DNA of 64,000 nucleotides from an uncultured Acidobacteriota bacterium (lineage in GTDB: Bacteria > Actinomycetota > Acidimicrobiia > Spongiisociales > ZC4RG35): the NCBI GenBank assembly GCA_963828465.1, contig CAWHEU010000022.1, forward strand, positions 128,001 to 192,000, read 5' to 3'. Each line of letters opens with the position of its first letter. Positions within the stretch are counted from its first letter, which is position 1. The notes beneath the pieces are model-generated. The model did not search any database, had not been told where the DNA came from, and was given only the letters and a program-made list of their open reading frames with translations. Positions 20,945 through 55,143 of this stretch are shown here, in pieces. A program made the position numbers and the translations under genes.

Positions 20945-20960
20945 CTGAATCGTCATTCAG
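20945..20960. promoter_or_regulatory. operator CTGAAY-N4-RTTCAG, site 1
   Basis: CTGAAT-CGTC-ATTCAG between the divergent GcvT-like and SBP genes. Confidence 0.7.
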
Positions 20961-21044
20961 GATTCACAGTGAGGCGAATCGGCGTCACAGGCTCTCCGAT
21001 GCGGATACATTGCCCTCGGGGCAAACTGAATGGAGAGTCAATTG

Positions 21045-22799
21045 ATGAGACGCCTTATCGTGTCGATGATCGCCGCCGTGGTCGCGGTGTCCCTTGTTCC
21101 GATCGCATCCGCCCAAGAGGAGGACGACCAGGTCACGCTTCGCGTCGGCCTCACGCAGGACTGGGAGGTCCTGAACCCGACCTCGGGCTACACGGTGCCT
21201 GCCTACGAGGTCTGGAACCTTCATTACGCCACCCTCACCGACAAGGCCGCTGACGATTTCGCCACGACTGAAGGGCTGGCGGAATCGTGGGAGGAGGTCG
21301 AGGCCGGCATCGAGTACGTCTACACCCTGAGAGAGGGCCTGACCTGGTCTGACGGCGAGCCACTCACCGCCGAAGACGTGGCCTGGAACATCAACACCGC
21401 CGGAGTTCAGGGTTGGGACAACATGGTTTCGACAGTTGCCAATATCGAGGCCACCGCGGAGGACGAGCGAACCGTCCGGCTTGTGTCGTCCGTCCCGGAC
21501 CCCAAGCTCCCCACCATGGACGTCTATCTCGTCCCGCAACACATCTGGGAACCGATCGCAACCGACTATGAGGCCGCCACTCAATATGCCGCAGACGATG
21601 GCGTAGGGAGCGGCCCGTTCGTCATGACCGAGTTCACTCCGAGCCAATCGGTAGTGATGGCTGCCAACCCCAACTACTGGGGATGGGAAGGCGAGGAGCC
21701 TCCGTACGACCAGGTGATCTTCCGATACTTCGAGAACCCAGACGCCATGGTGGCCGCCCTTCAGCAGGGTGAGATCGACGCTGCCCACGGATTCCCCGCC
21801 TCCTCGTGGGAGGCTCTCGAGGCAGATGACGCAATCGAGGTTGTGGCCGGCCAACAAGGTGGGTTCGATGAGATCGCCATCAACGGCGGCGCCGCCGAAG
21901 GCCAGCCCCATCCAGCTCTGCTCGACGTCGAAGTGCGGCGGGCCATCGCGCATGCCATCGACCGGCCCGCCGTCATCGAGGACCTCTATTTCGGCCTGGC
22001 AAGTCCGCTGGAGACGATTAGTCCCTCGGCCGACCCGAAATGGGTACCGGAGATCTCGGAAGACAACCAATTCTCCTATGACCCGGATCGGGCCAACCAA
22101 ATCCTCGACGAGGCGGGGTACATGGACAGCGACGGTGACGGCATCAGGGAGATGCCCGACGGCACCAACCCGCTCGTGATCCGCCACGCCGTCAACACCG
22201 ACGGCGACCTGGCCGGGTCGATCGGGGATCTGATGGTGGGATGGATGGAGGAGATCGGCATCGGCGTCGAGCTGGAGGCCTACGACCAGGATGCCCTCTT
22301 CGGGGTCATCGTCGAGGGAACCTACGACACCTTCTTCTGGGGCTGGGTGCCATTCGTGGACCCGGACCCGATGCTCTCCTACTTCACCGAGGCCGAGATC
22401 GGCGGCGCCAACGATGCCAACTGGTTCGATCCCGCATACGACGCGCTCTATACGGAACAAAACCAAGAGGTCGATCCCGATCGAAGAGTGGAGATCGTGC
22501 ACGAGATGTTGACCTTGTTCCACGATTCGGCCGTCTACATCCCGATGTATGTCGCGCCGGACCTCCAGGCCTATCGAACCGACACCTTCGAGGGCTGGGT
22601 CAAGCAGCCGGCCGAGATCGGTCCAGTTATGTTCAGCAACACCTCACCGAGCTATGTCCAGCTCACCCCGATCGGTGCTGATGCAGAGGGGTCCGGCACC
22701 AATTGGCTGCTATGGGGCGGGATCGCCGCCGGTGTGATCCTGATCGCCGGTGTCTTCCTGGCGATGCGGAATCGATCCACCGCCGACGATCGGGAGTGA
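21045..22799 (+). CDS. ABC transporter substrate-binding protein (family 5) with C-terminal TM anchor
   Basis: Sec signal (ASA-QE), WSDGEPLTAEDV, GSGPF and VRRAIAHAIDR; hydrophobic C-terminal tail. Start 21030 or 21045. Confidence 0.92.
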   Translation: MRRLIVSMIAAVVAVSLVPIASAQEEDDQVTLRVGLTQDWEVLNPTSGYTVPAYEVWNLHYATLTDKAADDFATTEGLAESWEEVEAGIEYVYTLREGLTWSDGEPLTAEDVAWNINTAGVQGWDNMVSTVANIEATAEDERTVRLVSSVPDPKLPTMDVYLVPQHIWEPIATDYEAATQYAADDGVGSGPFVMTEFTPSQSVVMAANPNYWGWEGEEPPYDQVIFRYFENPDAMVAALQQGEIDAAHGFPASSWEALEADDAIEVVAGQQGGFDEIAINGGAAEGQPHPALLDVEVRRAIAHAIDRPAVIEDLYFGLASPLETISPSADPKWVPEISEDNQFSYDPDRANQILDEAGYMDSDGDGIREMPDGTNPLVIRHAVNTDGDLAGSIGDLMVGWMEEIGIGVELEAYDQDALFGVIVEGTYDTFFWGWVPFVDPDPMLSYFTEAEIGGANDANWFDPAYDALYTEQNQEVDPDRRVEIVHEMLTLFHDSAVYIPMYVAPDLQAYRTDTFEGWVKQPAEIGPVMFSNTSPSYVQLTPIGADAEGSGTNWLLWGGIAAGVILIAGVFLAMRNRSTADDRE

Positions 22800-22803
22800 G
22801 CGC

Positions 22804-23799
22804 CTGACCACGGCTCGAACGACGGGACGGGGGCGGGGAAGACTCATTGGCCGAAAGGTGCTCGGGTCGGTCCTCACCCTCGTCTTCGTCCTCGTGTTCA
22901 ACTTCTTCCTGTTCCGTGTGGTCCAGACCGATCCGATCGGGTCACTGTTCAGGGGAAGGAACGTCCCACAGGAGACCCTGGACAATCTGCGGGTGGCCTT
23001 CGGCCTCGACCAGTCGATCGGGACCCAGTTCCTGCTCTATCTGAAGGAGTCGGCACAGCTCAACTTCGGGATCTCTTATCAGACCCGCCAACCGGTGTGG
23101 GACGAGATCGTCGCCGCCATCCCTGCGACCGTTGCTCTCGTCGGAGTCTCGGCGATTCTCTCCGCTCTGATCGGCACCGTCGGGGGGATCATCGCCGCCT
23201 GGCGGAGAAACACCTGGAAGGATCACTCGATCACGTCCGGGACGATGGTGTTCTACTCCATGCCGGATTTCTGGCTCGGCATGATCCTCCTCGTCCTCTT
23301 TGCCGTTGTCCTGGGGTGGTTTCCCGTTGGCGGGGTGTCGACTGCGGGGTCGGGCGAATCCGGTCTCGCGCTGCTCATCGACCAGGCCTATCACATGTTT
23401 CTTCCCGCGCTGACCCTGACTCTGGCCTATCTCGGGGAGTACACCCTCGTCACCCGGAGCTCGTTGCTCGACGTCATGGGTGAGGATTATCTCACGGTGG
23501 CCCGAGCCAAGGGATTGCGGGATGTCGCGGTGCGCAACCGCCATGCTGTTCCCAACGCGTTGCTCCCGGTCGTGACCCTCACTGCCATCAACTTCGGCTT
23601 CGTCCTCTCGGGCGCCATTGCCGTCGAGGCGGTGTTTTCCTGGCCCGGTCTGGGCAAGCTCACCGCCGACTCCATCCGCGGCCCCGACCTCCCCATGCTC
23701 CAGGCTCTCTTTCTCCTTTTCAGCGCGGCGGTCATCGTCTTCAACCTGATCGCCGACCTCACCTATAGCTGGCTGGACCCACGGGTGGAGGGTCAATGA
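22804..23799 (+). CDS. ABC transporter permease (OppB/DppB-like); start uncertain
   Basis: FYSMPDFWLG, EAA loop EDYLTVARAKG and VEAVFSWPGLG. No canonical start near 22800 (CTG at 22804). Confidence 0.9.
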   Translation: MTTARTTGRGRGRLIGRKVLGSVLTLVFVLVFNFFLFRVVQTDPIGSLFRGRNVPQETLDNLRVAFGLDQSIGTQFLLYLKESAQLNFGISYQTRQPVWDEIVAAIPATVALVGVSAILSALIGTVGGIIAAWRRNTWKDHSITSGTMVFYSMPDFWLGMILLVLFAVVLGWFPVGGVSTAGSGESGLALLIDQAYHMFLPALTLTLAYLGEYTLVTRSSLLDVMGEDYLTVARAKGLRDVAVRNRHAVPNALLPVVTLTAINFGFVLSGAIAVEAVFSWPGLGKLTADSIRGPDLPMLQALFLLFSAAVIVFNLIADLTYSWLDPRVEGQ

Positions 23800-24689
23800 C
23801 GAGCCTCGCCATGCAGCGACGACGCGCCACCGCGGGACGGGTGTGGAAGCAATTTCGCAGCTCGAGAAGCGGAATGATCGGACTCGGCGTGTTGCTTCTT
23901 TTCGTATTGATGGCCCTGGCGGCGCCGCTGCTCGCCGACGTCAGGGAGTTGAACCCGGTTTACGCCCGAGCTCAAGGTAATCCCCAATGGGCACCTCCGA
24001 GCGAATTCGGCCCACTGGGCACCGACTACATCCGCCGCTCGGTGTGGGCGCAGTTTGTGTGGGGCTCCCGGGTCAGCCTCTTCGTCGGGCTGGCGGCCAC
24101 CGTGCTCACGATCTTGATCGGCTCGGTCATCGGCATCGTCGCCGGGTTTGTCGGCGGCAAGCCCGACGCAGTGCTGATGCGGATCACGGAGTGGTTCTTG
24201 GTGGTTCCCTTCCTGCCCCTGGCCATCGTGCTGGCCTCGGTCCTGGGAAGGAACGTCTGGAACATCATCTTCGTCATCGGCATCACTTCCTGGCCCTCGA
24301 CCGCGCGTCTCATTCGCGCCCAAGTGCTGACGGTCAAGCAGCGTCTGTTCGTCGATCGGGCGCGCTCACTCGGGGCGAGCGGAAGGCACATCGTCGGGCA
24401 GCACATTCTCCCCAACGTCATGGGTTTGATCCTCGCCAACGCCACCCTGGCCGTCCCGATCTCGATACTCACCGAGACCACGCTGGCCTTCCTGGGGCTG
24501 GGTGACCCCTCGGCCGCATCATGGGGCAAGACCCTGGAGGAGGCCTTCGTCAACGGTGCAATGGTCAGGAACGCCTGGTGGTACTTCGTCCCCGCCGGTC
24601 TCGGGATCCTGGTGGTCGTCCTCGCCTTCACCCTGATCGGGCGCACTCTCGAGGAGATTGCTAATCCGAGACTGAGCCGCGCACGATGA
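23796..24689 (+). CDS. ABC transporter permease (OppC/DppC-like)
   Basis: PLGTD, GSRVSLFVG, ARSLGAS, HILPNV and LAFLGLG. Confidence 0.93.
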   Translation: MTSLAMQRRRATAGRVWKQFRSSRSGMIGLGVLLLFVLMALAAPLLADVRELNPVYARAQGNPQWAPPSEFGPLGTDYIRRSVWAQFVWGSRVSLFVGLAATVLTILIGSVIGIVAGFVGGKPDAVLMRITEWFLVVPFLPLAIVLASVLGRNVWNIIFVIGITSWPSTARLIRAQVLTVKQRLFVDRARSLGASGRHIVGQHILPNVMGLILANATLAVPISILTETTLAFLGLGDPSAASWGKTLEEAFVNGAMVRNAWWYFVPAGLGILVVVLAFTLIGRTLEEIANPRLSRAR

Positions 24690-25648
24690 GCGAGCCGATG
24701 CTCTCTGTGCACGACCTGGAGGTCACGTATCACGGGCACGGTGGCGACGTGCCGGCGGTGCGCGGGGTGAGCTTCAATCTGGAAAAGGGAGATTCCCTGG
24801 GTCTCGCCGGCGAGTCTGGTTGCGGCAAGTCCACGCTGGCCAATGCATTACTTCGTCTCCTGCCGGCCGGGACCGAAGTGTCCGGGCAGATCACCCTGGA
24901 TGGGAAAGACGTCCTCAACCTCAGTCCGGGAGGTCTGAGAGCGGCGCGATGGACTTCCGGGGCCATCATCTTCCAGGGGGCGCTCCATGCTCTGAACCCG
25001 GTGCAGACAGTGGGCGAGCAGATCGCTGAGCCGATGTTGGTCCATCAGACCGCGGCTAGTGACGGCGCCGCCCGAGAACGGGTCGTCGAGCTCCTCAGGA
25101 GAGTCGGTCTGCCCGCGGCTCGGGCCGACTCCTACCCCCATCAGCTGTCGGGTGGCCAGAGACAGCGGGTGCTCATTGCTATGGCCCTGGCCTGCGACCC
25201 GCTCCTACTCATCGCCGACGAACCGACCACTGCGCTCGATCTCATGGTCCAGGCCCAGGTCCTCGATCTCCTCGCAGACCTCAAGAAGGAACGTGACCTG
25301 ACCTTGATGTTCATCACGCACGATCTCTCGGTGCTCACCTACGCCTGCCGGCGACTGGCGGTTATGTATGCAGGACGGATCGTGGAAGAGGGCCCCGCCT
25401 GGGACGTATTCGAGAATGCGTCGCATCCTTACACGAGAGCTCTGGCCGCAGCTTTTCCCACTATCGGTGACGACACCTCGCGGATGGCGCCATCGGGTCT
25501 GGGCGGCGACCCGCCGACACCCGACAACCTGCCCCAGGGATGCCCCTTCCATCCTCGATGCCCTCTGGCCCATGATGCTTGTCTGCCGGCCGAGCCCGAC
25601 CTGCGTTCGTCGGGCCTGGAAAGGAGTGCGGCGTGCGTGCTGGTGTGA
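24686..25648 (+). CDS. ABC transporter ATP-binding protein (OppD-like)
   Basis: [25 protein letters not shown] and GCPFHPRC. Confidence 0.94.
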   Translation: MSEPMLSVHDLEVTYHGHGGDVPAVRGVSFNLEKGDSLGLAGESGCGKSTLANALLRLLPAGTEVSGQITLDGKDVLNLSPGGLRAARWTSGAIIFQGALHALNPVQTVGEQIAEPMLVHQTAASDGAARERVVELLRRVGLPAARADSYPHQLSGGQRQRVLIAMALACDPLLLIADEPTTALDLMVQAQVLDLLADLKKERDLTLMFITHDLSVLTYACRRLAVMYAGRIVEEGPAWDVFENASHPYTRALAAAFPTIGDDTSRMAPSGLGGDPPTPDNLPQGCPFHPRCPLAHDACLPAEPDLRSSGLERSAACVLV

Positions 25649-26598
25649 CCAATCTGGTCGAGGTCGAGGATCTGCACGTTCATTTCGGGGCCGCTCGAGC
25701 CGTCGACGGCGCCTCGCTGCATGTAATGCCGGGGGAGGTGCTGGCCCTGGTCGGGGAGTCGGGATCTGGGAAGACGACGCTCATCCGGGCGATCCAGGGC
25801 TTGCAGAAGCCGACCTCGGGCCACATACGGGTCGAGGATGTGGGCGACGACGGTCCGAGACCGAAGATCCAGACCATCTTCAATCCCAGCGTCCAGATGG
25901 TCTTCCAGGATCCAACCGGCGCCCTGAACCCCCGACAGACCATCTACGAGATCGTTGCCGAGGGACTGCGCATCCAGCACGGCGACGGCGTCGAGCAGGA
26001 GCGAGTAGCGCAGGCACTGTCCCGCGCGGGTCTGCGCCCACCGGAGCGGTTCTTTCCCTTGTATCCACACGAGGTGTCGGGCGGTCAGCGTCAGCGCGTC
26101 GTAATCGCCGGCGCCATGGTCATGGAGCCACGTCTCTTGCTGGCAGACGAGCCTGTGGCCAGCCTCGACGCCTCCATCCGCGGCGAGATCCTTGCTCTGA
26201 TGCGCCGCCTCGTGGACGAGACCGGTTTGGCCATCCTCGTCGTCACCCACGACCTCGGGCTCGCCTGGAACATTGCCGACCGGGTCGCCGTCATGTATCT
26301 GGGCCGGATCGTCGAGACCGGGCCGACCGAGCAGATCCTGGAGAACCCCCGGCATCCCTACACCAGGGCTTTGCTGTCTGTCGTACCCGAGACAAGGGAG
26401 ATGGAGCAGCAGATCCTGATTGGGGAAATACCAGATCCGGCCCGGATCCCTTCGGGATGCCGTTTTCATCCCCGCTGTCCTTTGCTCCAGTCAGGGGCTC
26501 TCGCGCCGGAAGTCGCGGCTCGATGTCCCACCGATGACCCGGGGCCGACGCCAGTAGGCGCCCTCACGGCAGCCGCCTGTTGGGCCGTTCCCGCTTAG
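25645..26598 (+). CDS. ABC transporter ATP-binding protein (OppF-like)
   Basis: GESGSGKT, VSGGQRQR, ADEPVASLD and GCRFHPRC. GTGA overlap with the upstream stop. Confidence 0.93.
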   Translation: MTNLVEVEDLHVHFGAARAVDGASLHVMPGEVLALVGESGSGKTTLIRAIQGLQKPTSGHIRVEDVGDDGPRPKIQTIFNPSVQMVFQDPTGALNPRQTIYEIVAEGLRIQHGDGVEQERVAQALSRAGLRPPERFFPLYPHEVSGGQRQRVVIAGAMVMEPRLLLADEPVASLDASIRGEILALMRRLVDETGLAILVVTHDLGLAWNIADRVAVMYLGRIVETGPTEQILENPRHPYTRALLSVVPETREMEQQILIGEIPDPARIPSGCRFHPRCPLLQSGALAPEVAARCPTDDPGPTPVGALTAAACWAVPA

Positions 26599-28460: not shown

Positions 28461-29624
28461 CTACACCATGTAAGAGCGCACCGGATCCTTCTCCTGGAGG
28501 ATGGGCCGGTCGGCGGCGAGGGCGGAGATGTCGTGTGTGGTGACGCCGTCGAGGGCGAGGTCGACGAGGATCCGGCCGAGCAACGAGGCGAACTTGAAGG
28601 CGTGGCCGGCACCCACCACTGTGAAGATGTTGGCTGTCCCTGGCACCCTGTCGAGGAGGAAATCGCGATCGGGCGTCAGCGTGTAGAGACAGGTCTTGGC
28701 CATCCGGACAGGTCCGACTGCCTGTGGGAGATGTTGGCCCGCGAAACCCCTGACAGCCTCGGTGACCTCATCCCGCGGCTCGAAACTCCTGTTCTCGGGG
28801 TCGGTCACGATCTCGCAGCGATCCCAGGCGATCTTCACAGCCGGCTCCCCGAATATCGGGAAACCGTAGAACGAGGGCTCGTCCATCCAGATCCAGATCG
28901 GGAAACGGGAGGGGTGGAACGACACCGGGTCTGCCGCCTCCATATAGACGACCTGTTCCAGGGTCACCTCGAGTGGGATGTCCACACCCAGACTCTCCAA
29001 CACGGTTGGGGTCCATGCCCCGGCGGCGACGATCAACGAGCCGACTCGATGGGTCCTGCCGTCGACCTCGATCTCGACCTCGCCGTCGACCTCCCGGATA
29101 GCGCCGACGCCGGCGCTGTCTACGAGGGTCGCACCGTTTTCTCGGGCCAGCCGACGATGTGTCTCATTGGCCCTCGAGGCCATGGCGATGCCGGATCGCT
29201 CTTGATAGAGAGCCTCCACGTCTTCGCTCAGACGCCATTGAGGCCAGCGCCTCATGACCTCGGCGGCGTCGAGCTCCTCGAAGGGAACCGAGGCAGCACC
29301 CATCGACATCCGGTAGTCGTCGAGTCCGATCGAGGCGTCGGCCGGAGCGAGATCGAGGCCACCCGTCCTGAGAACGAGTTGCTCGCCAGAATCGACCTCT
29401 ACCTGCTCCCATGCCTCGTAGGCCGCCTTGGCCAATTCGACGTAGGCGGGGGTGTGATAGGACAGCCGGATGATCCGGCTGTGATCCTCGGATCCCCCCC
29501 GGACATGACCGAGCTCGAATTGCTCGACGCCGAGGACGTCGCCACTGAGCCGACGGGACGCCCAGAAGGCGGCGGCGCTGCCGATGCCGCCCAGCCCGAG
29601 GACCGCCACCCGATAGTCAGTCAC
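28461..29624 (-). CDS. solA: N-methyl-L-tryptophan/monomeric sarcosine oxidase family
   Basis: VLGLGGIGSAA, GSEDHSRIIR, CLYTLTPDRDF and GHAFKFA. GTG start at 29624. Confidence 0.88.
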   Translation of the reverse strand: MTDYRVAVLGLGGIGSAAAFWASRRLSGDVLGVEQFELGHVRGGSEDHSRIIRLSYHTPAYVELAKAAYEAWEQVEVDSGEQLVLRTGGLDLAPADASIGLDDYRMSMGAASVPFEELDAAEVMRRWPQWRLSEDVEALYQERSGIAMASRANETHRRLARENGATLVDSAGVGAIREVDGEVEIEVDGRTHRVGSLIVAAGAWTPTVLESLGVDIPLEVTLEQVVYMEAADPVSFHPSRFPIWIWMDEPSFYGFPIFGEPAVKIAWDRCEIVTDPENRSFEPRDEVTEAVRGFAGQHLPQAVGPVRMAKTCLYTLTPDRDFLLDRVPGTANIFTVVGAGHAFKFASLLGRILVDLALDGVTTHDISALAADRPILQEKDPVRSYMV

Positions 29625-30721
29625 ATCAGCTCGTCGAGATACCGCCGAATATCCATCGAATAGTCCTCCATCGGGGCATAGAACCCGGTGGTGAACCGGC
29701 GCGACGACATCCCCCTCTGCACCGACTCGCAGATCTTCCAGTCCTGGCGGTTGACCATGTCCCAGAACTCGACGGCGTCCGAGGGATCGAAATCGGGTCT
29801 GGCCATCTCGTCGGGATGGAAGAGGAAATCGCACACCACGGTGGTGAAAGCGGGGCTGTGGGGCCACAGGGTGAAAGCGGCGACATGGTCGGCGGAGAGA
29901 CTCAGCATGAGGTTGGGGTAGACGAGTTGGCCCTTGTGCCGCTCCTGCTCTTCGGGCGTCAGACCGGGGAATGGCCGGCGGTTGGTCGTCCCGCTCGCGG
30001 TGAACGTCCAGGCACCATCGCGGTGGGGGATGCCGCTCTCCCAGTCCAGCTCGGAGCCGCCCCGCTGTCTGAAGGCGGGCACCAGCTCCACCAATTCAGG
30101 GTGGACCGGGCCGCAGTGATAGCACTCGTTGTAGTTCTCCACGAGAGCCTTCCAATTGGACGCGACCGGATAGACGAGCCGGACGGCGGTCCGCAGGTCG
30201 GCCAACGGATAGTTGGCCAGATAAGTCTCCGACTCCTGGAATTGACCGGTGATGGGCGCGGCCGCCGCGGCGTCGAGGTGGATCCAGACGAACCCAGCCC
30301 AGATCTCGACTGCGATGTGATGGAGGGGCAGGTCCTCTTTGTCGAGTCCGTCGGTCTCGTCGAGAAATGGTGCCGCTCGGAGCTGGCCATCGAAGCCATA
30401 GGTCCAGGCGTGGTAGGGGCATTGGATCGAGCCTTTGAACGTGCCGGTCGGGCCCAAGTGGGTTTGGGATGGCTTGCCGGCGGCATCGGTCAGCTGTGAG
30501 CCGCGATGCCGGCAGAGATTGACATAGGCCGCCAGGTCACCGGCTCGCGTCCTGGTGACGATGATCGATTCGCCGACGACATCGCAGACCAGATGGTCGC
30601 CTGGTTCGGGGATTTCCTCTTCGCGACCGACGCAAAACCACTGTCGCTCGAAGACGCTGGACACCTCTTTGGCGAACCAATCGGCTTCGACATACCGATC
30701 CCGGTGAAGTGTCGGTTCCAC
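29621..30721 (-). CDS. Rieske non-heme iron oxygenase alpha subunit (GbcA/Stc2-like)
   Basis: CRHRG...CPYHAW Rieske motif, ENYNECYHCGPVH and QDWKICE. Leaderless TACCCT-N6-GTG. Confidence 0.92.
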   Translation of the reverse strand: MEPTLHRDRYVEADWFAKEVSSVFERQWFCVGREEEIPEPGDHLVCDVVGESIIVTRTRAGDLAAYVNLCRHRGSQLTDAAGKPSQTHLGPTGTFKGSIQCPYHAWTYGFDGQLRAAPFLDETDGLDKEDLPLHHIAVEIWAGFVWIHLDAAAAAPITGQFQESETYLANYPLADLRTAVRLVYPVASNWKALVENYNECYHCGPVHPELVELVPAFRQRGGSELDWESGIPHRDGAWTFTASGTTNRRPFPGLTPEEQERHKGQLVYPNLMLSLSADHVAAFTLWPHSPAFTTVVCDFLFHPDEMARPDFDPSDAVEFWDMVNRQDWKICESVQRGMSSRRFTTGFYAPMEDYSMDIRRYLDELM

Positions 30722-30734: not shown

Positions 30735-30750
30735 TTGAACGGCGGTTCAG
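30735..30750. promoter_or_regulatory. operator CTGAAY-N4-RTTCAG, site 2
   Basis: TTGAAC-GGCG-GTTCAG directly upstream of the -10 of the Rieske gene. Confidence 0.65.
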
Positions 30751-33992: not shown

Positions 33993-34004
33993 ACGACGGT
34001 TCAG
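33989..34004. promoter_or_regulatory. operator CTGAAY-N4-RTTCAG, site 3
   Basis: Perfect CTGAAC-GACG-GTTCAG followed by a TAGTGT -10-like hexamer, upstream of the ALDH gene. Confidence 0.7.
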
Positions 34005-44495: not shown

Positions 44496-44514
44496 GACCC
44501 TCTATGCCACCGAG

Positions 44515-45834: not shown

Positions 45835-45850
45835 CTAAACCGCCGTTCAG
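45835..45850. promoter_or_regulatory. operator CTGAAY-N4-RTTCAG, site 5
   Basis: CTAAAC-CGCC-GTTCAG upstream of the potD-like gene. Confidence 0.65.
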
Positions 45851-46532: not shown

Positions 46533-46548
46533 CTGAACAGCCGTTCAG
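46533..46548. promoter_or_regulatory. operator CTGAAY-N4-RTTCAG, site 6 (autoregulatory position)
   Basis: Perfect CTGAAC-AGCC-GTTCAG overlapping TACGCT, between the TetR and CoA ligase genes. Confidence 0.72.
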
Positions 46549-46560
46549 GATCCCTTCACG

Positions 46561-48603
46561 ATGATGTCACTCGACCCCATGCTCAAGGCCCGATCCGTCG
46601 CTGTCGTGGGCGCGAGCGAGCGGGCCGGGTCGGTGGGCGACCAGACGATCAGGCAGCTGGTCTCGGGAGGCTTCGAAGGGGTAGTGCAAGCAGTCAACCC
46701 TCGCTACGAGTCGGTGCACGGCGTCAGCGCCGTCTCTTCGCTGGAGGACATCGGCTCATCGGTGGACCTGGCGGTGCTGGCCGTTGCGAACGGCCAACTC
46801 GAAACGGAGATGGAGAAGGCCCTGAGCACTGGCGCACGCTCGGTGGCGATCTTCGCCAGTTGTCACGGAGAAGCAGCGGGTGGCGGGTCGCTTCGAGACC
46901 GGCTCCGCGACCTGGCCAATAGATCTGGTGTCCCGATCTGTGGCGGCAATGGGATGGGCTTTCTCAATGTGGAGGAGAGAATCCGGGTCTGCGGTTTCTA
47001 CCAACCGGAAGACCTGCGGCCCGGAGGGGTGACATTTCTCAGCCACTCTGGATCCCTTTTCTCGGCAATGCTGCACAACCAGCGAGGGATCAGGTTCAAT
47101 CTCGTCGTCTCCACCGGCCTCGAAATCAACACGCCGATGGACGCATACATGCGGTGGGCGCTCGACCTGGAGTCGACCAGGGTCCTCGCCTTGTTTCTCG
47201 AGACGATCCGTGATCCGGACGGGTTTCGTCAGGCCCTCGCCCGAGCCGATGAGATGGACGTGCCCGTCATCGCTTTGAAAGTGGGCGCTACCCGCAAAGG
47301 CCAGGAGGCGGTTGCCACGCATTCAGAGGGCCTCGCTGGCGATGACGCCGTCTACGAGGCGCTTTTCGAGGCTCATGGCGTCCACCGCGTGTGGAGCATG
47401 GACGAGATGGCCGACACCGTTGAGTTGTTCGCCTCTGGCCGCAGGGCCACCGCATCGGGTCTCGCCGCCGTCCATGACTCGGGTGGCGAGAGGGCGCTCC
47501 TCATCGACACCGCCGATCGGGCCGGTGTCGCGCTGCCTCCACTGGCAGAGGGGGCGACGGCGCGGCTGTCGCGGGTCCTCGACCCCGGTCTCGAACCCGT
47601 CAACCCGATCGACGCCTGGGGCACGGGCCGGGACGCCGAGGGAGTGTTCGTCGAATGTCTCCAAGCTGTCGCCGACGACCCTGCGGTCGGGGCGGTCGCC
47701 TTTTGCGTCGACCTCACCGCCGAGGAGAAACCCGACTACGCCTATTCCGACGCAGCGTTCACAGTGGCCGGCCTCACCGGCAAGCCGCTGATGGTGCTGA
47801 GCAACCTTACGACGACGATCGATCCGGCTCAGGCCGGAAGACTTCGGGAGGGGGGCATTCCGATCCTCGAGGGCACCGAGACCGGGCTCCGCGCCATACG
47901 TCATTTGCTTGATCGTCACGAACGATCGATACGACCGCCCGTGTTGTCGAGAATCAGCCCTCCATCCAACCCGGTGCCGGCCGTGGCGGGCGAAGCCGCT
48001 GCTCTACGAGTCCTGGACTCATATGGCATCTCGGTGCCGCGCTTCGAGGTCGTTGCCGATAAGGCTGGGCTATTAGAAGCCGCAGAGCGGATCGGTTACC
48101 CGGTCGTCTTGAAGACGGCCGAGCCGATTGATCACAAGACAGAGCAGGGCGGAGTCGTGGTCGGCCTCGAAGACGAACCCAGGCTCGCGGACGCATACCG
48201 GGATCTGGCGTCCAGGCTCGGGCCCCGTGTCTTGGTGGCTGAGCAGATCCCGCACGGGGTGGAGATGGGCCTGGGGATGGTCGATGACGAGCAATTCGGC
48301 CCGGTGGTGATCATTTCGGCTGGGGGCGGTCTCATAGAGACCATGTCGGATCGGGTGGCGGTGTTGCCACCAATCGACAGAGCGGGGGCGGTGCGAGCTC
48401 TTGACCGCTTACGGATCCGCCATGTTCTCGAAGGGGTCCGGGGACGGCCACCCGCTGACCTCGACTCCCTGGCCGACGTGATTGCCCGCTTCTCCGAGAT
48501 GGCCGCAGACGGAGCCGGCCTGATCGGGGCCATCGACGTCAACCCCATCATCGCCGGCCCGGCCGGAGCGGTAGCCGTAGATGCCTTGATCAAGCCACGA
48601 TGA
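46561..48603 (+). CDS. acetate--CoA ligase (ADP-forming) family protein
   Basis: SVAVVGASE, GGNGMG, SHSG, ATHSEGLAG, GYPVVLK, HKTEQGGV and DVNP. Confidence 0.92.
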   Translation: MMSLDPMLKARSVAVVGASERAGSVGDQTIRQLVSGGFEGVVQAVNPRYESVHGVSAVSSLEDIGSSVDLAVLAVANGQLETEMEKALSTGARSVAIFASCHGEAAGGGSLRDRLRDLANRSGVPICGGNGMGFLNVEERIRVCGFYQPEDLRPGGVTFLSHSGSLFSAMLHNQRGIRFNLVVSTGLEINTPMDAYMRWALDLESTRVLALFLETIRDPDGFRQALARADEMDVPVIALKVGATRKGQEAVATHSEGLAGDDAVYEALFEAHGVHRVWSMDEMADTVELFASGRRATASGLAAVHDSGGERALLIDTADRAGVALPPLAEGATARLSRVLDPGLEPVNPIDAWGTGRDAEGVFVECLQAVADDPAVGAVAFCVDLTAEEKPDYAYSDAAFTVAGLTGKPLMVLSNLTTTIDPAQAGRLREGGIPILEGTETGLRAIRHLLDRHERSIRPPVLSRISPPSNPVPAVAGEAAALRVLDSYGISVPRFEVVADKAGLLEAAERIGYPVVLKTAEPIDHKTEQGGVVVGLEDEPRLADAYRDLASRLGPRVLVAEQIPHGVEMGLGMVDDEQFGPVVIISAGGGLIETMSDRVAVLPPIDRAGAVRALDRLRIRHVLEGVRGRPPADLDSLADVIARFSEMAADGAGLIGAIDVNPIIAGPAGAVAVDALIKPR

Positions 48604-49397
48604 GCGGGTCGGTCCTTCTCGTCGAGGACACCGGCCCGATACGCCGACTCACTCTGAACCGGCCGGAGAAGTTGAACGCCCTCGACTCGGCCTTGGTCCA
48701 AGAGCTTTCGGCAGAGCTGGGTATCGCTGGGGACGACATCGGGGTAAGGGTGATCGTGATAGCCGGGGCCGGTCGCTCGTTCTGCGCCGGCTACGACCTC
48801 TCCGAGGAATCGGGGCCGGAGAGCGCCCTGGAGGGTCTCACCAACAGTCTCGATCGATTGCTCGAGATCTTCGACCATCCGCGGCCGATCATCGCCCAGG
48901 TGCATGGCCACTGTCTCGCCGGCGGGTGCGATCTGATGATGATGTGCGACTTGGCCGTGGCGTCGGACGATGCCGTGTTCGGACAGCCCGAGATCCGGTT
49001 TGGCTCGACGGTGGTGGCCCAGGTGATGCCATGGCTGATCGGTGCCCGTCGGGCCAAGGAGCTGATCATGACCGGGCAAGACAAGCTCGACGCCGTGGAA
49101 GCGCATCGCATCGGCCTGGTGAATCGGGTGGTGCCCCGCCAAGACCTGGAAGCAGAAACAATGCGTCTTGCTCGGGAGCTGGCCGTGGTCGACCCGGCAG
49201 TTATGACTCTCACCAAGCGGGCCATCAACCGCTCATGGGAGGCGGCCGGCTTCCGTCAGGCTCTGATCGAAGGCGTCGAGCTGGCCGCCGAAATCGAAGC
49301 CGCCCGAGCCCCCGAACGCGAGGAATTCGATCGCATCGCAGCAGACGAGGGCCTCAAGGAGGCGATCCGCTGGCGGGATCAGCGGTTCGAGGGCTAG
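48600..49397 (+). CDS. enoyl-CoA hydratase/isomerase family protein
   Basis: [26 protein letters not shown] and FGQPE. Confidence 0.93.
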
Positions 49398-50182
49398 CTG
49401 TCCTCGGCCCGCTGCGCATAGCGCTGGGCCAGGATGATCGGTATGAAGGTGATGACGATCACGAAAACTGCCACCACGTTGGTGACGGGGCGGTTACGGG
49501 GTCGGACCAACGAGGAGAAGATCCAGATGGGGAGGGTCTGCTGATTCCCTGCAGTGAAGGTGGTGACGATGATCTCATCGAAGGAGAGGGCGAAGGCGAG
49601 CATCCCCCCGACCAGCATGGCGGGGGCGAGTTGGGGGAGCAGTACGTGACGAAACGTCTGCCACCCCCGAGCCCCGAGGTCCATGGATGCCTCCAGGATG
49701 TTGGGTGAGGTCCGTCTCATCCGGGCGATGACGTTGTTGAAAGCCACCGCCACGCAAAAGGTGGCGTGCCCGATCACCAGAGTCCAGAAGGAGAAAGAGA
49801 GGCTGCCCAGATTGATCGCAGACCGCAAGGCGATGCCGGTGATGATTCCGGGCAGGGCGATGGGGAGGATGATGAAGAGGCTGAGCGTGTTCTTCCCGAA
49901 GAAGTTGGTTCTCCATACCGCCGCCGCGGCGAGGGTGCCCACCACCAGGGCGACCACGGTCGAGATTGCGGCCACCCGGAGGGAGAGGCCCAACGCCGCC
50001 CTGATCTCCGAGTTCTGCCAGGCCACTCCGAACCATTCTGTGGTGAGGCCGGGAGGCGGGAACCGAAAGCTGGCGGATTCGGTGGTGAAGGCATAGAGGA
50101 AAACGAAGAGGATGGGGACATGCAGGTAGGCGAGGGTTAATCCCGCCGCCAGCTTCAACCCGAGGCTCGCCTTGGTCCTCAC
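49394..50182 (-). CDS. ydcV: ABC permease (YdcV/PotC-like)
   Basis: [25 protein letters not shown] and [14 protein letters not shown]. Confidence 0.85.
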
Positions 50183-51111
50183 AACGCCTCGAATGCGCCG
50201 AAGCGCCTCGCCGCGGTCAGGTAAATGGCCATCACCGCGATCGGGATGAAGGAGAACGCTGCGGCCAGTGGGAGGTTGCCGGCCACGCCCTGGTAGGAGT
50301 AAATAGCCAAGCCGATGAACGGGCTGGAGTCGCCGATGATGGTGGGGATGATGTAGTCACCCAGGGTCAGGGAGAAGGTGAAGATCGACCCGGCGGCGAC
50401 GCCCGGGATAGCCATCGGCCAGGTCACCTTGCGGAATGTCACCGCTGGCTGGGCTCCGAGGTCGGCTGAAGCCTCGAGCAGTGAGCCAGGCACCCTTTCC
50501 AGCGAGGCATGGATCGGGAGGATCATGTAGGGCAGCCAGATGTAGACGAAGACCAGAAACTGGCCGAAGAGTGATATCGAGAGCGAAGGCCCTCCGATCA
50601 CCGGGGTGTCCAGGAACCACCTGAGCGCCACCCCCAAGCCCAACCTTTCCACAAACCAGTTGATGATCCCGTCGGCAGCCAGGATCAACTTCCACGAATA
50701 GACCCTGACCAGATAAGAAGACCAGAGAGGCACCAACACCGCCAGGACGAGCAGGGCTTTCACCTGCTTCCGGGCGTAGCGGGCCATGTAGTAGGCGAGG
50801 GGGAAGGCAATGATGACCGAGGCCACGGTGACCGCCGCCGCCATTCCCACGGTTCGGACCATTACGGCGACGTTGGCCTCGGTGAACAGCTGTCTCCACG
50901 AGTCGAGAGAGAACGCGTCCCCGATCACCCCGCTGAAGGTGTCCAGGGCATAGAAGCTCTGGACGAGTAAGGCACCCAGGCTTCCCCCATAGATCCCGAC
51001 CAGCCAGATCACAGGCAGAGCCAGGAGCAAGAGGACCTTCAGCCAGGGGCGCTGGTGAAGACTTCTCGCGATGCGATGAGTAAGGGTCGGGCCCTTCGTG
51101 TCCGTCGTCAT
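50179..51111 (-). CDS. ydcU: ABC permease (YdcU/PotB-like)
   Basis: [26 protein letters not shown] and FSLTLGDYI. Confidence 0.85.
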
Positions 51112-51122
51112 GTGCAGTGCTC

Positions 51123-51155
51123 GATGTGGGTGGCTCCCCGGCAGCCACCCACATC
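51123..51155. terminator. 13-bp perfect hairpin downstream of the SBP gene (attenuator or mRNA stabiliser)
   Basis: GATGTGGGTGGCT-CCCCGGC-AGCCACCCACATC in the SBP/permease gap. Confidence 0.65.
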
Positions 51156-51168
51156 ACGAGCGAGTCGC

Positions 51169-52356
51169 TCAGCGTCCGCCGATCACCGCCAGGTAGTCGG
51201 TGACCCACCGGTAGTAGGGGACACAGGTACCTGTGGACTCCGTTCCGTTGCAGTCGTCGGTCGGGGTCTTCCAGAACAGGATCTCGTCGAAGGACTCGCT
51301 CCCGTTGTTGGCACAGCCGTCCGGGCCGAGCAGCTCGTTGCCTTCACATGCATCGGGGACAGCCGGCACCGTCCCGAACCAGGCCGCCAGGTCGCCTTGG
51401 AGCTTGGGGTTCAGCGAGTGCTCCATCCACATGTATGCGCAATTGGGATTGGGAGCGTTCGAGCTCAGCATCGTGGTGTCGGCCCAGCCGGTAGCTCCTT
51501 CGACCGGAACCACCTTGTCGATCGGCTCACCGCTCGCCTGCAAGACGTTGGTCTGGAACGGCCAGGTCGAGGAGGCGGCGACGCCCTCGTTGGTGAAGTC
51601 GTCGATCTGGATGAAGGCGTCGTGCCAATAGCGACCGATCAGGGCCCGCTGTTGGCGCAGCAGGTCGAGAGCCGCCTGGTACTGGTCCTCGTTTAGCTGG
51701 TAAGGGTCTTCGATCCCGAGATCGGGCTGGGTGGCGCTCAGGTAGAGGGCGGCGTCGGCGATGTAAATCGGGCCGTCATAGGCCTGAACCCGTCCTGCAT
51801 TCGACTCACCATCGGGGAGGGTTGTCTCCTCAAAGACCACGCTCCACGAGTCGGGCGGTGTGTCACCGAAGACCTCGGTGTTGTACCCGAGGACGTTGAA
51901 GCCCTCCGCATACGGCGTCCCGTAGTGCTTGCCGTCGATGGTGTGCCACTCGGCGTCCTGAAGACGGGAGTCGATCGTGTCCCAACTCTCGATCAGGTCG
52001 GTGTTGATTTCCTGAACGGCTCCACCTGCGATGAGACGGAGACTGGAGTCGCCGGAGGCGGTTACCAGGTCGTACTCCTCGGAGCCGGTCATCAGCGCAA
52101 CCATCTCGTCCGATGTGCCCGCGACCTTGTTTTCGACCATGCAGCCTGTCTCTTCTTCGAACTGGGTCACCCAGTCGAACGCGGGGTCGGTTTCACCCCG
52201 CTCGATGTAGCCCGCCCAGGAGACGATGACGACATTCCCCTCGCCTTCACCGATCTCGGTGGGGAGTTCGGCACCCTCCTCGCCTCCTGAGCTAGTACAC
52301 GCGGTCGCCAATAAGGCGAACGCCGTGATCAGGAGAATCAGCTTTCTTGATCTCAT
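51169..52356 (-). CDS. ydcS: ABC substrate-binding lipoprotein, YdcS-like
   Basis: [44 protein letters not shown] and GWADTTM, recognised from E. coli YdcS. Confidence 0.88.
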
Positions 52357-53453
52357 TCGATGGTTTCCTCCTCTGGGATGTTGTTCCCGGCCCCGGTCAA
52401 AGCCGGGGTCCTCTCATTCGGCTCTCCATCTCGAGGGTCCTCCTCGAGTGGTCGGCACGAACTCTTCATCCAGGTGAGCCTCACGGCCCGCCCCACCTGG
52501 CGTTGCGCGTCGCTGTGATCCGAGGCGGTGTTCTGGGCGGCGACCTCGATCACCGCCCCGCCCACGTCGACGCGGTACCGGGTGTACATGCCGAGGTAGA
52601 CCGCCTCGGCGATCGTCCCTTCGACAGCGGCCCGATTCGACGCGACGATCGAGGCCGGCTCCTCGATGCTGATCTTTTCGGGCCGGACGGTGAAGGGGGC
52701 AGGCGTTCCCATGATCTGCTCCGCCAACGGGCCTGACATCACGTTGGAGGTGCCTACGAACCCGGCCACAAAAGCGTTGCGGGGGTTCTCGTAGACCTCC
52801 GACGGTGTCCCCACTTGCTCGACCCGGCCGTGGTTGAACACCGCGAGCCGGTCGCTCATCGTCAGCGCCTCCTCCTGGTCGTGGGTCACGTAGATGAAGG
52901 TGATCCCTACTTCGCGCTGCAGGGTCTTGAGCTCCAGTTGCATCGCCTGCCGGAGCTTGAGGTCGAGGGCGCCCAACGGCTCGTCGAGAAGGAGCACCGA
53001 GGGCCGGTTGATGAGTGCCCGCGCCAGGGCGACCCGCTGTCTCTGTCCACCGGACAACTGGCTTGGCTTGCGGGCCGCGAATCCGTCGAGATGGACCATC
53101 TCCAGGGCCTTGGCAACCCTGTCCTCCTTGTCGGTCTCCTTGCGCACCATCGGCCCATAGGCCACGTTCTCGGCGACCGTCATGTGGGGGAAGAGGGCGT
53201 AGTCCTGAAAGACGGTGTTCACGTCGCGGTCATAAGGCGGGACCCCGGTCACGTCGCTGCCGTGAAGGAGCACTCTCCCGCTTGTCGGGATCTCGAAACC
53301 GGCGATCATCCGTAGACAGGTGGTCTTGCCGCTCCCGGATGGGCCCAGCAGCGAGAAGAACTCACCGTCGGCAATCTCGAGCGAAACCCCGTCGACCGCG
53401 ACGACATCGCCAAAGGACTTCGCCACCTCGTCGAGCGTCACTGCCGAGGCCAT
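52353..53453 (-). CDS. ydcT: ABC ATP-binding protein (YdcT/PotA-like)
   Basis: [31 protein letters not shown] and LSGGQRQR. Confidence 0.87.
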
Positions 53454-53508
53454 CAGACCGGTCTCGACTCAGGGAACCGAGATCCAACCCGCAGCGGAGT
53501 GGGTTTGA

Positions 53509-55050
53509 TCAGACCGATGGATCGGTCACCTCGGCGTCGGTGGCAGTGGTGTCGGCAACCGACGTCGTGCCGTATCCCTCCTCTTCGGGATGACCGTGCT
53601 CGCCCTGTGTCATGGCGAACTCCTCTTCCGGTGAGAGGACCAGCTTGTTCCGGCCGGAGATGGCGAAATAGAGCAGGGCGAGGACGAACCAGATGGCAAC
53701 TCCGTACACCCCTGGGCGATAGGCGTCGTTCAAGAACAGCGCGACCAACGAGATGAGGGCGATCAGGCCAGCGACGGCCGCTCCGAAGATCCCAACGGGG
53801 CTCCGATAAGGGCGCGAGATATTCGGCATGTTCCGCCTGAGCCGGATGAACGACAGCATCTGCATGAAGTAGGAGATCACTGCCCCGAAAACCGCCATGC
53901 TCAGAAGCGCGGCCCCGGCGGTCCCGGTGTACTGACCGTCCAACAAGAACGCCAGCGCGAGGCCGACGACCGCTCCGAGGAGAAGCGCCACATAGGGCGT
54001 CTTCCGCTTGCCGTGGGTGAGCGACATCCAGTGGGGGAAGTAGCCGGCCCTCGACAGCGAGTAGATGTTCCGCCCATATGCATAGATGATCGTGTGGAAG
54101 CTGGCGATCAACCCGGTAAGCGCGAACAGCCCGAGGATCGCGGCACTGGTGTCGCTGCCCAGGACCTGCCGGAACCCATCCAGGAGGGGCTCGCCCGAGG
54201 TCCTGATCCCTTCGGCCCCATCACCGACCCCGGTGTTGAGAAAGAGGACTCCCATTCCGGTGATGACCAGAGTCCACAATCCCCACATCGTCCCTCTCGG
54301 GACGTCTCGCTTGGGGTCCATCGATTCCTCGGCAGCGAGGGGCAACTCTTCGATGGCCAGGTAGAACCAGATGGCGAAGGGCAAGGCGGCGAATATCCCA
54401 GCGACGCCAAATGGGAGGAACGACGTGCCCCCCTCCTCTGCGACGATGTTGGTTAGCAACGAGGCATCGAAGTTGGGGATCGCCAGCACGAAGAAAACGG
54501 CGAGCACCGCCAGCGATATCACGGCGATAACCACCGAGAAGCGCATCGTTGCTTCGATCCCGATGATGTTGAGCCCGACGAAGATCGCATAGAAGATCAC
54601 CCACCACCAAGGCAGGCCGAGCTCGAACCCGAACAGGTCGTTGAACACGCTCTGCGCATAGATCGAGGCGAAATAGACCACCACGACGGGCGTCACCACA
54701 TATTCGATGTTCTCGGCCACTCCGGTAATGAATCCGCCCCAGGGTCCCATTGAAGACCGGGCGAAGGAATAGGCGCCTCCGGTGTGGGGCATCGCCGGCG
54801 ACATCTCCGAGATGGAGTAGCACAGGCCGATGTACATGATGGTGATGACGATCGTGGCGATGAAGAGGCCGCCGAATCCGCCGACATCGAGACCGAAGTT
54901 CCATCCGGAGAAGTCGCCGGAGATGACTGCGGCCACACCAAGCGCCCAGAGCATCCATACCCCGGCGTGACGCTTGAGACCGCGCTGGTCGAAGTACCCC
55001 TGGTCGACATCGCGATAGGTGACCGAGCCGACCTTGCGTTCGGTCGACAT
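53509..55050 (-). CDS. eat: APC family amino acid permease, ethanolamine permease-like
   Basis: LWALGVAAVISGDFSGWNFG, PFAIWFYLAIEE, GLIASFHTIIYAYGR and RPYRSP. Confidence 0.82.
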   Translation of the reverse strand: MSTERKVGSVTYRDVDQGYFDQRGLKRHAGVWMLWALGVAAVISGDFSGWNFGLDVGGFGGLFIATIVITIMYIGLCYSISEMSPAMPHTGGAYSFARSSMGPWGGFITGVAENIEYVVTPVVVVYFASIYAQSVFNDLFGFELGLPWWWVIFYAIFVGLNIIGIEATMRFSVVIAVISLAVLAVFFVLAIPNFDASLLTNIVAEEGGTSFLPFGVAGIFAALPFAIWFYLAIEELPLAAEESMDPKRDVPRGTMWGLWTLVITGMGVLFLNTGVGDGAEGIRTSGEPLLDGFRQVLGSDTSAAILGLFALTGLIASFHTIIYAYGRNIYSLSRAGYFPHWMSLTHGKRKTPYVALLLGAVVGLALAFLLDGQYTGTAGAALLSMAVFGAVISYFMQMLSFIRLRRNMPNISRPYRSPVGIFGAAVAGLIALISLVALFLNDAYRPGVYGVAIWFVLALLYFAISGRNKLVLSPEEEFAMTQGEHGHPEEEGYGTTSVADTTATDAEVTDPSV

Positions 55051-55101
55051 AGACGTACCTCCCTTGGTGAGTGGGCACCGAGAATAGGAATGCAGGCTTT
55101 G

Positions 55102-55120
55102 CCGATGCGGTCCGCATCGG
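55102..55120. promoter_or_regulatory. perfect palindrome in the permease/GS divergent gap
   Basis: CCGATGCGG-T-CCGCATCGG followed by TAGTTTTTT. Confidence 0.5.
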
Positions 55121-55127
55121 TAGTTTT

Positions 55128-55143
55128 TTGATTCGCCATTCAG
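55128..55143. promoter_or_regulatory. operator CTGAAY-N4-RTTCAG, site 7 (degenerate)
   Basis: TTGATT-CGCC-ATTCAG, 2 mismatches to the consensus. Confidence 0.45.

Follow-up and report, generated by a model that had tools for sequence, protein, structure and literature searches.

A conserved 16-bp palindrome as the putative operator of a TetR-family regulator of amine uptake and breakdown in uncultured Acidimicrobiia

Among the closest known counterparts of the regulatory system considered here are BetI, the choline-responsive repressor of Proteobacteria, AmtR, the TetR-family nitrogen-control repressor of Corynebacterium, and the repressors PuuR (Escherichia coli) and EpuRI/EpuRII (Streptomyces coelicolor), each of which resembles it in some respects. 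BetI represses genes of quaternary-amine metabolism and transport, and its operator, a palindrome that overlaps divergent promoter elements (PMC12442346), has been published as a 14-bp box, ATTGACG*CGTCAAT (PMC12442346). AmtR controls multiple operons with which nitrogen sources are taken up and degraded (PMC9397018), and PuuR and EpuRI/EpuRII repress operons for glutamine synthetase (GS)-like gamma-glutamyl-amine synthetases together with aldehyde dehydrogenase and transport genes (PMC6529630, PMC9397018). In this study, we analyzed a 64-kb stretch of DNA, positions 128001-192000 of contig C22 (hereafter, the window), from genome G000 (3.07 Mb, 64% G+C, 29 contigs; estimated completeness 92%, contamination 4.8%). 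We consider it probable that the TetR-family repressor encoded at 45863-46474 has as its operator a palindrome recurring in this window, CTGAAY-N(R-Y)N-RTTCAG, through which it controls operons for the uptake and breakdown of amines. Regulator and operator are linked by association (motif enrichment, conservation of position and co-occurrence across genomes), from which we infer binding and repression by the TetR protein. Operators occupied by a single TetR dimer usually span about 16 bp, and the 6-4-6 architecture of the palindrome fits this size.

Seven sites of the CTGAAY-N4-RTTCAG type had been proposed in a first-pass annotation of this DNA, and all seven are real, with their sequences confirmed at the positions given; however, the window holds eight, including one at 21026, and the putative regulon extends beyond it, at least to contig positions C21:19489 and C27:39013 (Table 1). 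The exact motif occurs three times in the window (20945, 33989 and 46533) against 0.01 expected, a number reached by none of 100 shuffles, and six matches with at most one mismatch (the exact three plus 30735, 38308 and 45835) stand against 0.39 expected, again with 0/100 shuffles reaching six. At up to two mismatches, the 10 matches in the window compare with 5.08 expected and were equaled in 5 of 100 shuffles; since this class is not significant by count, two-mismatch sites require other support, and the site at 55128 accordingly rests on its position and on its conservation in the three of three relatives that hold the region.

At the scale of the genome, 14 matches with at most one mismatch (five exact and nine with one mismatch) were found in 3.07 Mb, of which six fall within 20945-46548 of the window. 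A symmetric weight matrix built from 71 distinct sites of relatives, run over the whole genome as the first-pass annotation had suggested, returned 11 sites scoring at least 16, compared with two in the reversed genome, and seven scoring at least 20, compared with none; seven of the 11 best-scoring sites are window sites, lying inside 34 kb of the 3.07 Mb. Of the other four, C21:19489 and C27:39013 suit the theme of the regulon, and C7:37624 and C4:107230 look accidental. After curation, 10 of these 11 are intergenic (P ~4e-9 given a genome that is 11.4% non-coding). The coding fraction behind this estimate, 88.6%, is approximate and comes from a crude codon-bias gene caller; because this caller mis-called several window genes, these were curated with Pfam and NCBIfam. 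The center of the matrix is R-Y, with G in 105 and A in 32 of 142, followed by the mirror image; at position -2, 97 of 142 have A.

All eight window sites are intergenic, in agreement with the earlier placement of the sites in promoter regions of catabolic and transport operons, and those at 30735 and 33989, which overlap the stop codon of a co-directional upstream gene, are located in internal promoter regions just before the next gene rather than in divergent ones. In these two sites the TGA within the half-site CTGA is itself the stop codon of the upstream gene (30747-30749 and 33990-33992), an arrangement also seen at a match on contig C4 that is attributed to chance (L126 7231-7233). Several further matches were set aside as chance occurrences: the two-mismatch matches at 1617 and 6468 of the window look accidental; C7:37624 lies inside an LRR-like coding stretch and its center is not R-Y; C4:107230 lies between AlkZ-like and GreA-like genes; and C2:8001 (= C12:4135), C2:9325 (= C12:2811) and C13:92650 lie in open reading frames or beside unrelated genes. 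The first two of these last coordinates belong to a stretch, C2:8001-9340, that is repeated in opposite orientation as C12:2811-4150 with STAS, MEDS/HATPase and GAF-ANTAR genes, representing either a duplication or assembly redundancy.

Comparison across genomes supports a functional operator. Genus-wide counts of exact sites, TetR orthologs and loci outside the window, as well as the search for TetR in the same order, include the unpublished genomes G018, G042 and G043. The exact motif was found 108 times in 31 genus genomes, compared with two occurrences of a reversed-pattern control, and TetR orthologs were detected in 26 of the 31. These 26 genomes carry 101 exact sites (mean 3.9), and the five without TetR carry seven in total (1, 3, 1, 0 and 2). 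A single exact site was found altogether across 15 genomes that belong to other families of the same order and have no TetR match at E 1e-20 or better. Moreover, 26 loci of unrelated TetR genes yielded no site.

At 23 TetR-ortholog loci, both flanking sites were found in 18 and one in the remaining five, most of which are cut by contig ends, and in all 35 close-ortholog loci of named metagenome-assembled genome (MAG) records a site with fixed half-sites flanks the TetR gene on at least one side. In the flanking sites the half-sites CTGAA/TTCAG are fixed, and the four spacer bases and the Y/R positions vary; alignments of this locus show the operator as a conserved island amid diverged spacers. 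Gene order is preserved in the five relatives whose island was fetched, among which the site between TetR and the acyl-CoA synthetase gene is kept in 5/5 and the PotF site in 4/4. Outside the window, the site at the aminotransferase/aldehyde dehydrogenase pair recurs at 22 of the 29 corresponding loci of relatives, and contig ends cut several of the other seven; the site before the DmdA-like gene recurs in 16 of 16. The MAG records in which TetR is found at 73-97% identity are titled Acidimicrobiia or Actinomycetota, and many, with identities of 74-97%, are titled Acidobacteriota; the title 'uncultured Acidobacteriota' is probably a labelling error in deposited MAGs.

Furthermore, TetR orthologs of 47-55% identity retain the arrangement in which the CoA ligase and PotFBC genes lie on the two sides of TetR (CoA ligase <- TetR -> PotFBC), and 11 of 12 such loci have an operator ahead of PotF. 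Five genomes reached through such distant loci hold four or five YTGAAY-N4-RTTCAR sites each, compared with 0-1 for the control, and the three most distant of them carry a site at the divergon of Rieske oxygenase 2 and the aminotransferase (3/3), before the acyl-CoA dehydrogenase gene (2/3) and before the DmdA-like gene (2/3). Even where TetR is only 47-50% identical, sites hold their positions and their spacer bases vary. The retention of sites with distant orthologs is, to judge from these comparisons, the strongest evidence for a functional palindrome that travels with this TetR. In one distant genome (G051:C51, L177 8793-8838) the Rieske/aminotransferase divergon bears two operators, 30 bp apart from start to start. 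The conservation of the sites, across the genus and at distant TetR loci, together with the co-occurrence of motif and regulator and the scarcity of the motif where TetR is missing, argues for the proposal that one operator tied to this TetR marks many transcription units.

The individual sites differ in how widely they are kept and in how they sit relative to promoter elements. A canonical sigma-70 promoter scan of 20800-38500 gave no matches against 2.6 expected, and because such a scan is uninformative in a high-G+C actinobacterium, TANNNT hexamers were examined instead. The earlier observation that several sites overlap or abut such hexamers holds: 8 of 10 sites have one within 14 nt, compared with 4.5% of positions drawn at random from the genome, and its strand is in every case that of the gene downstream. 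Most sites overlap or abut -10-like TANNNT hexamers, the predicted positions of a repressor. Operator 1 has a site in the same place in 4/4 relatives holding the region (G005, G007, G015 and G019). Operator 2 ends 4 nt before the SBP_5 ATG (21045), covering a GGAGAG ribosome-binding stretch, and has an orthologous site in 4/4 relatives with scores of 13.2-16.2; its conservation could be due in part to the ribosome-binding site. Operator 3 abuts a TACCCT hexamer, and 6 nt further on an in-frame GTG at 30721, read by eye, is the probable leaderless start of Rieske oxygenase 1; this site is kept in two of five relatives (G007 and G009). Operator 4, kept in three of four relatives with the gene, is followed 3 nt downstream by a TAGTGT hexamer, and the aldehyde dehydrogenase start, GTG 34054, stands behind GGAGG.

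Both edges of operator 5 are overlapped by TATCCT hexamers, of which one faces Rieske oxygenase 2 (-) and the other the aminotransferase gene (+), and with these opposed hexamers a single bound dimer would occupy the two divergent promoters at once. Operator 5 is kept in 5/5 genus relatives and in 3/3 distant genomes. On the minus strand, the last three bases of operator 6 start a TAGTGT hexamer facing PotF, and its apparent mismatch, CTAAAC, is itself conserved and creates the TA of that hexamer. The left edge of operator 7 is overlapped by a TACGCT hexamer facing the CoA-ligase gene. Operator 8 is kept in three of three relatives (scores 16.9-17.4) with a degenerate left half-site. Only 8 nt from it, between the ethanolamine-permease and GS-like genes, lies a perfect 9-1-9 palindrome, CCGATGCGGTCCGCATCGG, at 55102-55120, which is unique in the genome and kept in three relatives (with one change in one of them); a second regulator, specific to this pathway, may bind there.

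The regulator itself belongs, at the domain level, to the TetR/AcrR family: TetR_N (PF00440) scores 43.1 bits over residues 15-60 (cut-off 24) and TetR_C_6 70.9 bits over residues 85-197 (cut-off 27), and the closest solved relatives (4kwa and others) align over residues 11-199 with E 4e-27. Its description as BetI-like holds for the C-terminal Pfam domain and goes no further, since both NCBIfam BetI models fall below cut-off (TIGR03384 / PRK00767; 77.7 vs 201.3 and 71.6 vs 118) and the operator is unlike the BetI box. On these profile scores, the protein has a BetI-type C-terminal domain yet is not BetI. Across 11 genus orthologs, a Trp/acidic stretch is invariant (D106 G107 W108, W111, W115 E116, D121 and W135), which suggests a pocket for a cationic ligand. 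In addition, contigs from RNA libraries (three studies, runs X16-X19) match window positions 44000-49000 at 90-99% identity and span both the TetR/PotF junction and the TetR/acyl-CoA synthetase spacer; such contigs carry no strand, ends or level and DNA carry-over is possible, so nothing was drawn from them on promoters or repression.

Some observations weigh against a regulon governed by this TetR and should be considered together. A perfect copy of the motif does lie upstream of the TetR gene, as had been pointed out, at 59-74 nt from its start. The TetR promoter resembles an extended -10 element (TGcCAAGAT) only 5-6 nt ahead of the GTG, which implies a leaderless transcript and puts operator 46533 at about -59 to -74; as this is not a classical repression position, autoregulation of TetR, assumed in the first-pass annotation, is not supported and appears doubtful. 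This operator lies outside the likely TetR core promoter and overlaps the divergent CoA-ligase promoter instead. The core columns of the weight matrix are circular, because training sites were picked with the same pattern, and its spacer and flank columns are independent. Moreover, C7:37624 and C4:107230 score similarly to or above the weak sites at 55128 (16.9) and 21026 (13.2) yet look accidental, and the reversed genome also yields two matches of at least 16. Regulon membership varies among relatives, with the site of Rieske oxygenase 1 kept in two of five. Finally, the five genus genomes without a detectable TetR (G001, G020, G022, G042 and G043) hold up to three exact sites each, among them the aminotransferase/aldehyde dehydrogenase site and, in G020 (C1:28889), 16 bases identical to the operator between the window's GCV_T and SBP_5 genes. 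In these five genomes the PotF-like ortholog was also not detected, and their sites may reflect MAG assembly gaps, relic sites or another protein reading the motif.

The last of these options leads to the alternative that fares best, namely that the palindromes are genuine transcription-factor sites read by a different protein, either of the ArgR type or some regulator encoded elsewhere, which we regard as unlikely. The sites in TetR-less genomes agree with it, a WYL regulator lies in the island and an IclR gene at the C27 locus, the motif core TGAAY-N4-RTTCA resembles the ARG box consensus TGAAT-W4-ATTCA, and an arginase-family gene is close to the C21 site. The ArgR version was nevertheless rejected, as the boxes are single and the ArgR domains PF01316 and PF02863 were not found in the 92%-complete genome by searches that match in 8-9 control genomes. 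E. coli ArgR operators are described as pairs of 18-bp boxes 2-3 bp apart (PMC4381063), whereas in the window just one pair of sites occurs (20945 and 21026), at a distance of 81 bp. Against any other reader stand the two sites flanking TetR in almost every ortholog locus, including those with 47-55% identity, and the near absence of the motif from the 15 same-order genomes without TetR; the WYL gene, for its part, has no site of its own.

It is very improbable that the palindromes work as RNA hairpins, that is, as terminators or attenuators at gene ends rather than as protein-binding DNA. Although a 6-bp stem with a 4-nt loop could form and three sites (30735, 33989 and 45835) lie at or just past the stop of a co-directional upstream gene, folding of these three with their flanks gave z-scores of -0.09, -1.90 and -1.51 against shuffles, with no T-run after them, and a terminator scan of 20800-38500 listed none of the sites; on these two results the hairpin reading was rejected. 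Several sites, moreover, are in divergent promoter regions, where a transcript end is unexpected; the spacer favors R-Y, and what is conserved in the half-sites is their sequence, with no sign of compensatory change. A chance origin, or descent from a short dispersed repeat with no regulatory role, has a negligible probability, for even though the count at up to two mismatches does not significantly exceed shuffles and at least two good-scoring genome matches look accidental, it is already refuted by exact and one-mismatch counts above every shuffle, by the genus-wide excess over the control and by orthologous positions kept over deep divergence while flanks diverge, with no repeat unit shared beyond 16-22 bp.

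Returning to the palindrome as a TetR operator, the regulon would comprise about 11 transcription units in the window and two or three outside it. As annotated, it includes three ABC importers and one permease for transport, and its predicted enzymes are two Stc2/CntA-type Rieske oxygenases, GCV_T-family demethylase-like proteins and flavin amine oxidases, together with aminotransferases, aldehyde dehydrogenases, a set of CoA ligase, acyl-CoA dehydrogenase and hydratase, and a gamma-glutamylation operon. The predicted ancestral core, kept with a TetR of about 50% identity, is the CoA ligase on one side of TetR and PotFBC on the other, and the Rieske/aminotransferase-PotA divergon, the acyl-CoA dehydrogenase and the DmdA-like gene are kept with it as well.

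Table 1. Positions of the candidate operators, the regulator and the predicted target units (window coordinates unless a contig is given).
Feature	Coordinates	Strand	Match and score	Context or basis
Operator 1	20945..20960		exact, CTGAATCGTCATTCAG, score 25.0	between divergent GCV_T gene (-) and SBP_5 transporter operon (+)
Operator 2	21026..21041		2 mismatches, CTGAATGGAGAGTCAA, score 13.2	absent from the first-pass list
Operator 3	30735..30750		1 mismatch, score 22.9	overlaps CocE/NonD hydrolase stop codon
Operator 4	33989..34004		exact, score 25.0	overlaps flavin amine-oxidase stop codon
Operator 5	38308..38323		1 mismatch, score 18.7	within extended palindrome GTATCCTGA...TCAGGATAC
Operator 6	45835..45850		1 mismatch (CTAAAC half-site)	12 nt past TetR stop, 28 nt before PotF-like ATG
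Operator 7	46533..46548		exact	12 nt before ADP-forming acyl-CoA synthetase ATG; 59-74 nt upstream of TetR GTG
Operator 8	55128..55143		2 mismatches, TTGATTCGCCATTCAG, score 16.9, weakest	between ethanolamine-permease gene (-) and GS-like operon (+)
TetR-family regulator, 203 aa	45863..46474	-		TetR_N + BetI-type TetR_C_6 (Pfam); proposed operator binder
GCV_T aminomethyltransferase-family protein (19702-20901) + flavin amine oxidoreductase	18099..20901	-		Pfam, NCBIfam
SBP_5 / DppBCDF-type ABC importer	21045..26598	+		Pfam
Rieske oxygenase 1 + sarcosine-oxidase-like (DAO) flavoprotein	28461..30721	-		Pfam, NCBIfam
Aldehyde dehydrogenase + acyl-CoA dehydrogenase (split over two frames in assembly)	34054..36663	+		Pfam, NCBIfam
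Rieske oxygenase 2 (Stc2/CntA/GbcA-like) + DUF1801	36652..38268	-		Pfam, NCBIfam
Class-III aminotransferase + PotA-like ATPase operon	38346..40844	+		Pfam, NCBIfam
PotF-like binding protein + two permeases (ABC importer)	42652..45807	-		Pfam, NCBIfam; most widely conserved target
ADP-forming acyl-CoA synthetase + enoyl-CoA hydratase operon	46561..49397	+		divergent from TetR
Ethanolamine-permease homolog then YdcS-type ABC importer	49394..55050	-		weak-site target; TIGR00908 397.4 bits vs 381.75
GS-like gamma-glutamylating enzyme (frameshifted in assembly), SDR, aldehyde dehydrogenase, amidotransferase	55209..59520	+		weak-site target
Aminotransferase/aldehyde dehydrogenase site, outside window	C21:19489		exact	between divergent class-III aminotransferase and aldehyde dehydrogenase
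DmdA-like gene site, outside window	C27:39013			just upstream of DmdA-like GCV_T gene; near IclR, MTHFR-like, MttB and RACo genes

The likely substrates were approached through the nearest relatives of the target proteins. The PotF-like protein has spermidine/putrescine-binding proteins as its nearest solved relatives, Rieske oxygenase 2 comes closest to 3vca/4qup (demethylase) and to CntA, a carnitine monooxygenase, and the closest relatives of the aminotransferase are glutamate-semialdehyde aminomutases and beta-transaminases. For the CoA ligase and the acyl-CoA dehydrogenase, the best models are 3-hydroxypropionate-CoA ligase and acryloyl-CoA reductase, with scores far below cut-offs. Taken together, the likenesses of PotF, Rieske oxygenase, aminotransferase, CoA ligase and GS cluster point to polyamines, omega-amino acids and N-methylated or quaternary amines as the compounds taken up and degraded. 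Among the window genes, Pfam and NCBIfam identified no GMC choline dehydrogenase and no BCCT transporter, and the scores of the aldehyde dehydrogenases, 572.7 and 525.7, fall short of the BADH cut-off of 668.6.

As to how such a regulon might work, an effector-free TetR dimer would occupy each operator and, where this overlaps or abuts the -10 hexamer or the transcription start, would block RNA polymerase; at divergons, one operator would control two back-to-back promoters. Binding of an effector in the BetI-type C-terminal domain would then release the repressor. The effector could be a cationic amine imported by the PotF-like transporter, such as a polyamine, an omega-amino acid or an N-methylated or quaternary amine, or alternatively a CoA thioester derived from the imported amine.

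A more ambitious and doubtful proposal is that soil Acidimicrobiia degrade a cationic omega-amino compound, N-methylated or quaternary, by a catabolic route not yet described, with BetI-type sensing and a dual-promoter operator design. Along this route, uptake by the PotF-type importer would be followed by demethylation by the Stc2/CntA-type Rieske oxygenases and the GCV_T/DmdA-like proteins, then by transamination and oxidation, and finally by the action of the ADP-forming CoA ligase, the acyl-CoA dehydrogenase and the enoyl-CoA hydratase. The CoA set would follow the logic of dmdABCD for dimethylsulfoniopropionate, but on a nitrogen compound, and the BetI-type TetR would sense the substrate, coordinating its use with that of polyamines and ethanolamine. 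In the operator design proposed, the outer CT/AG would at the same time complete the -10 hexamer (TAnnCT), allowing one dimer to shut two back-to-back promoters.

Membership is less direct for some of the units in Table 1 and for genes lying between them. The continuity of the ethanolamine-permease/YdcS operon is deduced from co-direction alone. Interspersed genes had been described as having no site; this stands for the WYL gene, whereas DUF1801 (36652-37065), directly downstream of the regulated Rieske gene and on the same strand, is probably in the regulon by virtue of that position. The WYL-domain regulator (HTH_11-WYL-WCX) and a divergent GNAT acetyltransferase (40832-42648) are kept inside the island in five of five relatives and, being without a TetR-type operator, may form an independent control module.

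Some reading frames of the putative regulon are interrupted. The GS-like gene is split over the overlapping frames 55071-55847 and 55351-56589 and is a single intact open reading frame in G007 and G019; the acyl-CoA dehydrogenase gene is split over frames 35490-36392 and 36031-36663 and is split in G019 too; and in the DmdA-like gene on contig C27 (37750-38994) the match to most relatives, at 90-99% identity, is confined to residues 1-178. These interruptions are probably assembly indel errors, or else the genes are pseudogenes. Directly behind the gamma-glutamylation operon, on the opposite strand (59492-62986), lies a gene for a 1164-aa protein that combines a double zinc ribbon with adenylate/guanylate cyclase and AAA_16 ATPase domains.

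All that is known of the lineage comes from metagenome bins, with no cultured relative, and in this context a conserved operator offers a sequence-level handle on which amine-related genes act together, with an ancient core that it places in the CoA-ligase operon and the PotF-like importer. One small protein and its 16-bp sites also provide an in vitro entry point towards the inducing compound, whose identity would indicate which nitrogen-rich substrates are eaten by these abundant soil and rhizosphere actinobacteria. Multi-operon TetR regulons have precedents (AmtR and others), which keeps the conceptual gain modest, and the regulon is well supported but ordinary in kind; its main value lies in opening the physiology of an uncultured soil lineage. 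A search of the literature for this motif with the TetR family, or for a TetR regulon in Acidimicrobiia, found no relevant paper, supplements being outside the search.

Compared with known systems, the operator shares with the ARG box its palindromic form, a TGAAT-like half-site and a 4-bp center. It is unlike the ARG box in that its center is G+C-rich and R-Y rather than A+T-rich, and ARG boxes are paired (PMC4381063). Among solved proteins, the uncharacterized TetR structures 4kwa, 4jnn, 4nel and 4ich have a Trp-rich stretch that aligns with DGWxLWPAAWE of the window TetR. To our knowledge, these four proteins have no known operator, ligand or regulon. The AmtR box, for its part, differs from the window operator. 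The sequence relation between AmtR and the window TetR is likewise marginal (PDB 5mqq, E 4.4e-4, helix-turn-helix only), and AmtR, which resembles this TetR in the many operons it governs, is released by GlnK and not by a small ligand (PMC9397018).

With BetI, the window TetR shares the domain pair TetR_N and TetR_C_6, in addition to the amine-related targets and the overlap of operator and divergent promoters. Nevertheless, the TGA/TCA cores are 4 bp apart in the BetI box (PMC12442346) and 8 bp apart here, and BetI acts on one divergon, compared with about a dozen units here and no bet genes among the window genes. The cluster at 53509-59520, comprising permease, GS-like enzyme, dehydrogenase, aldehyde dehydrogenase and amidohydrolase genes, is composed like the glnA4 cluster of S. 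coelicolor (PMC6529630, PMC9397018) and like the Streptomyces gamma-glutamyl-ethanolamide pathway (PMC6529630). PuuR, EpuRI and EpuRII, which control comparable genes, are local regulators of a single pathway, whereas in the window the gamma-glutamylation operon has the weakest site and shares its operator with many pathways.

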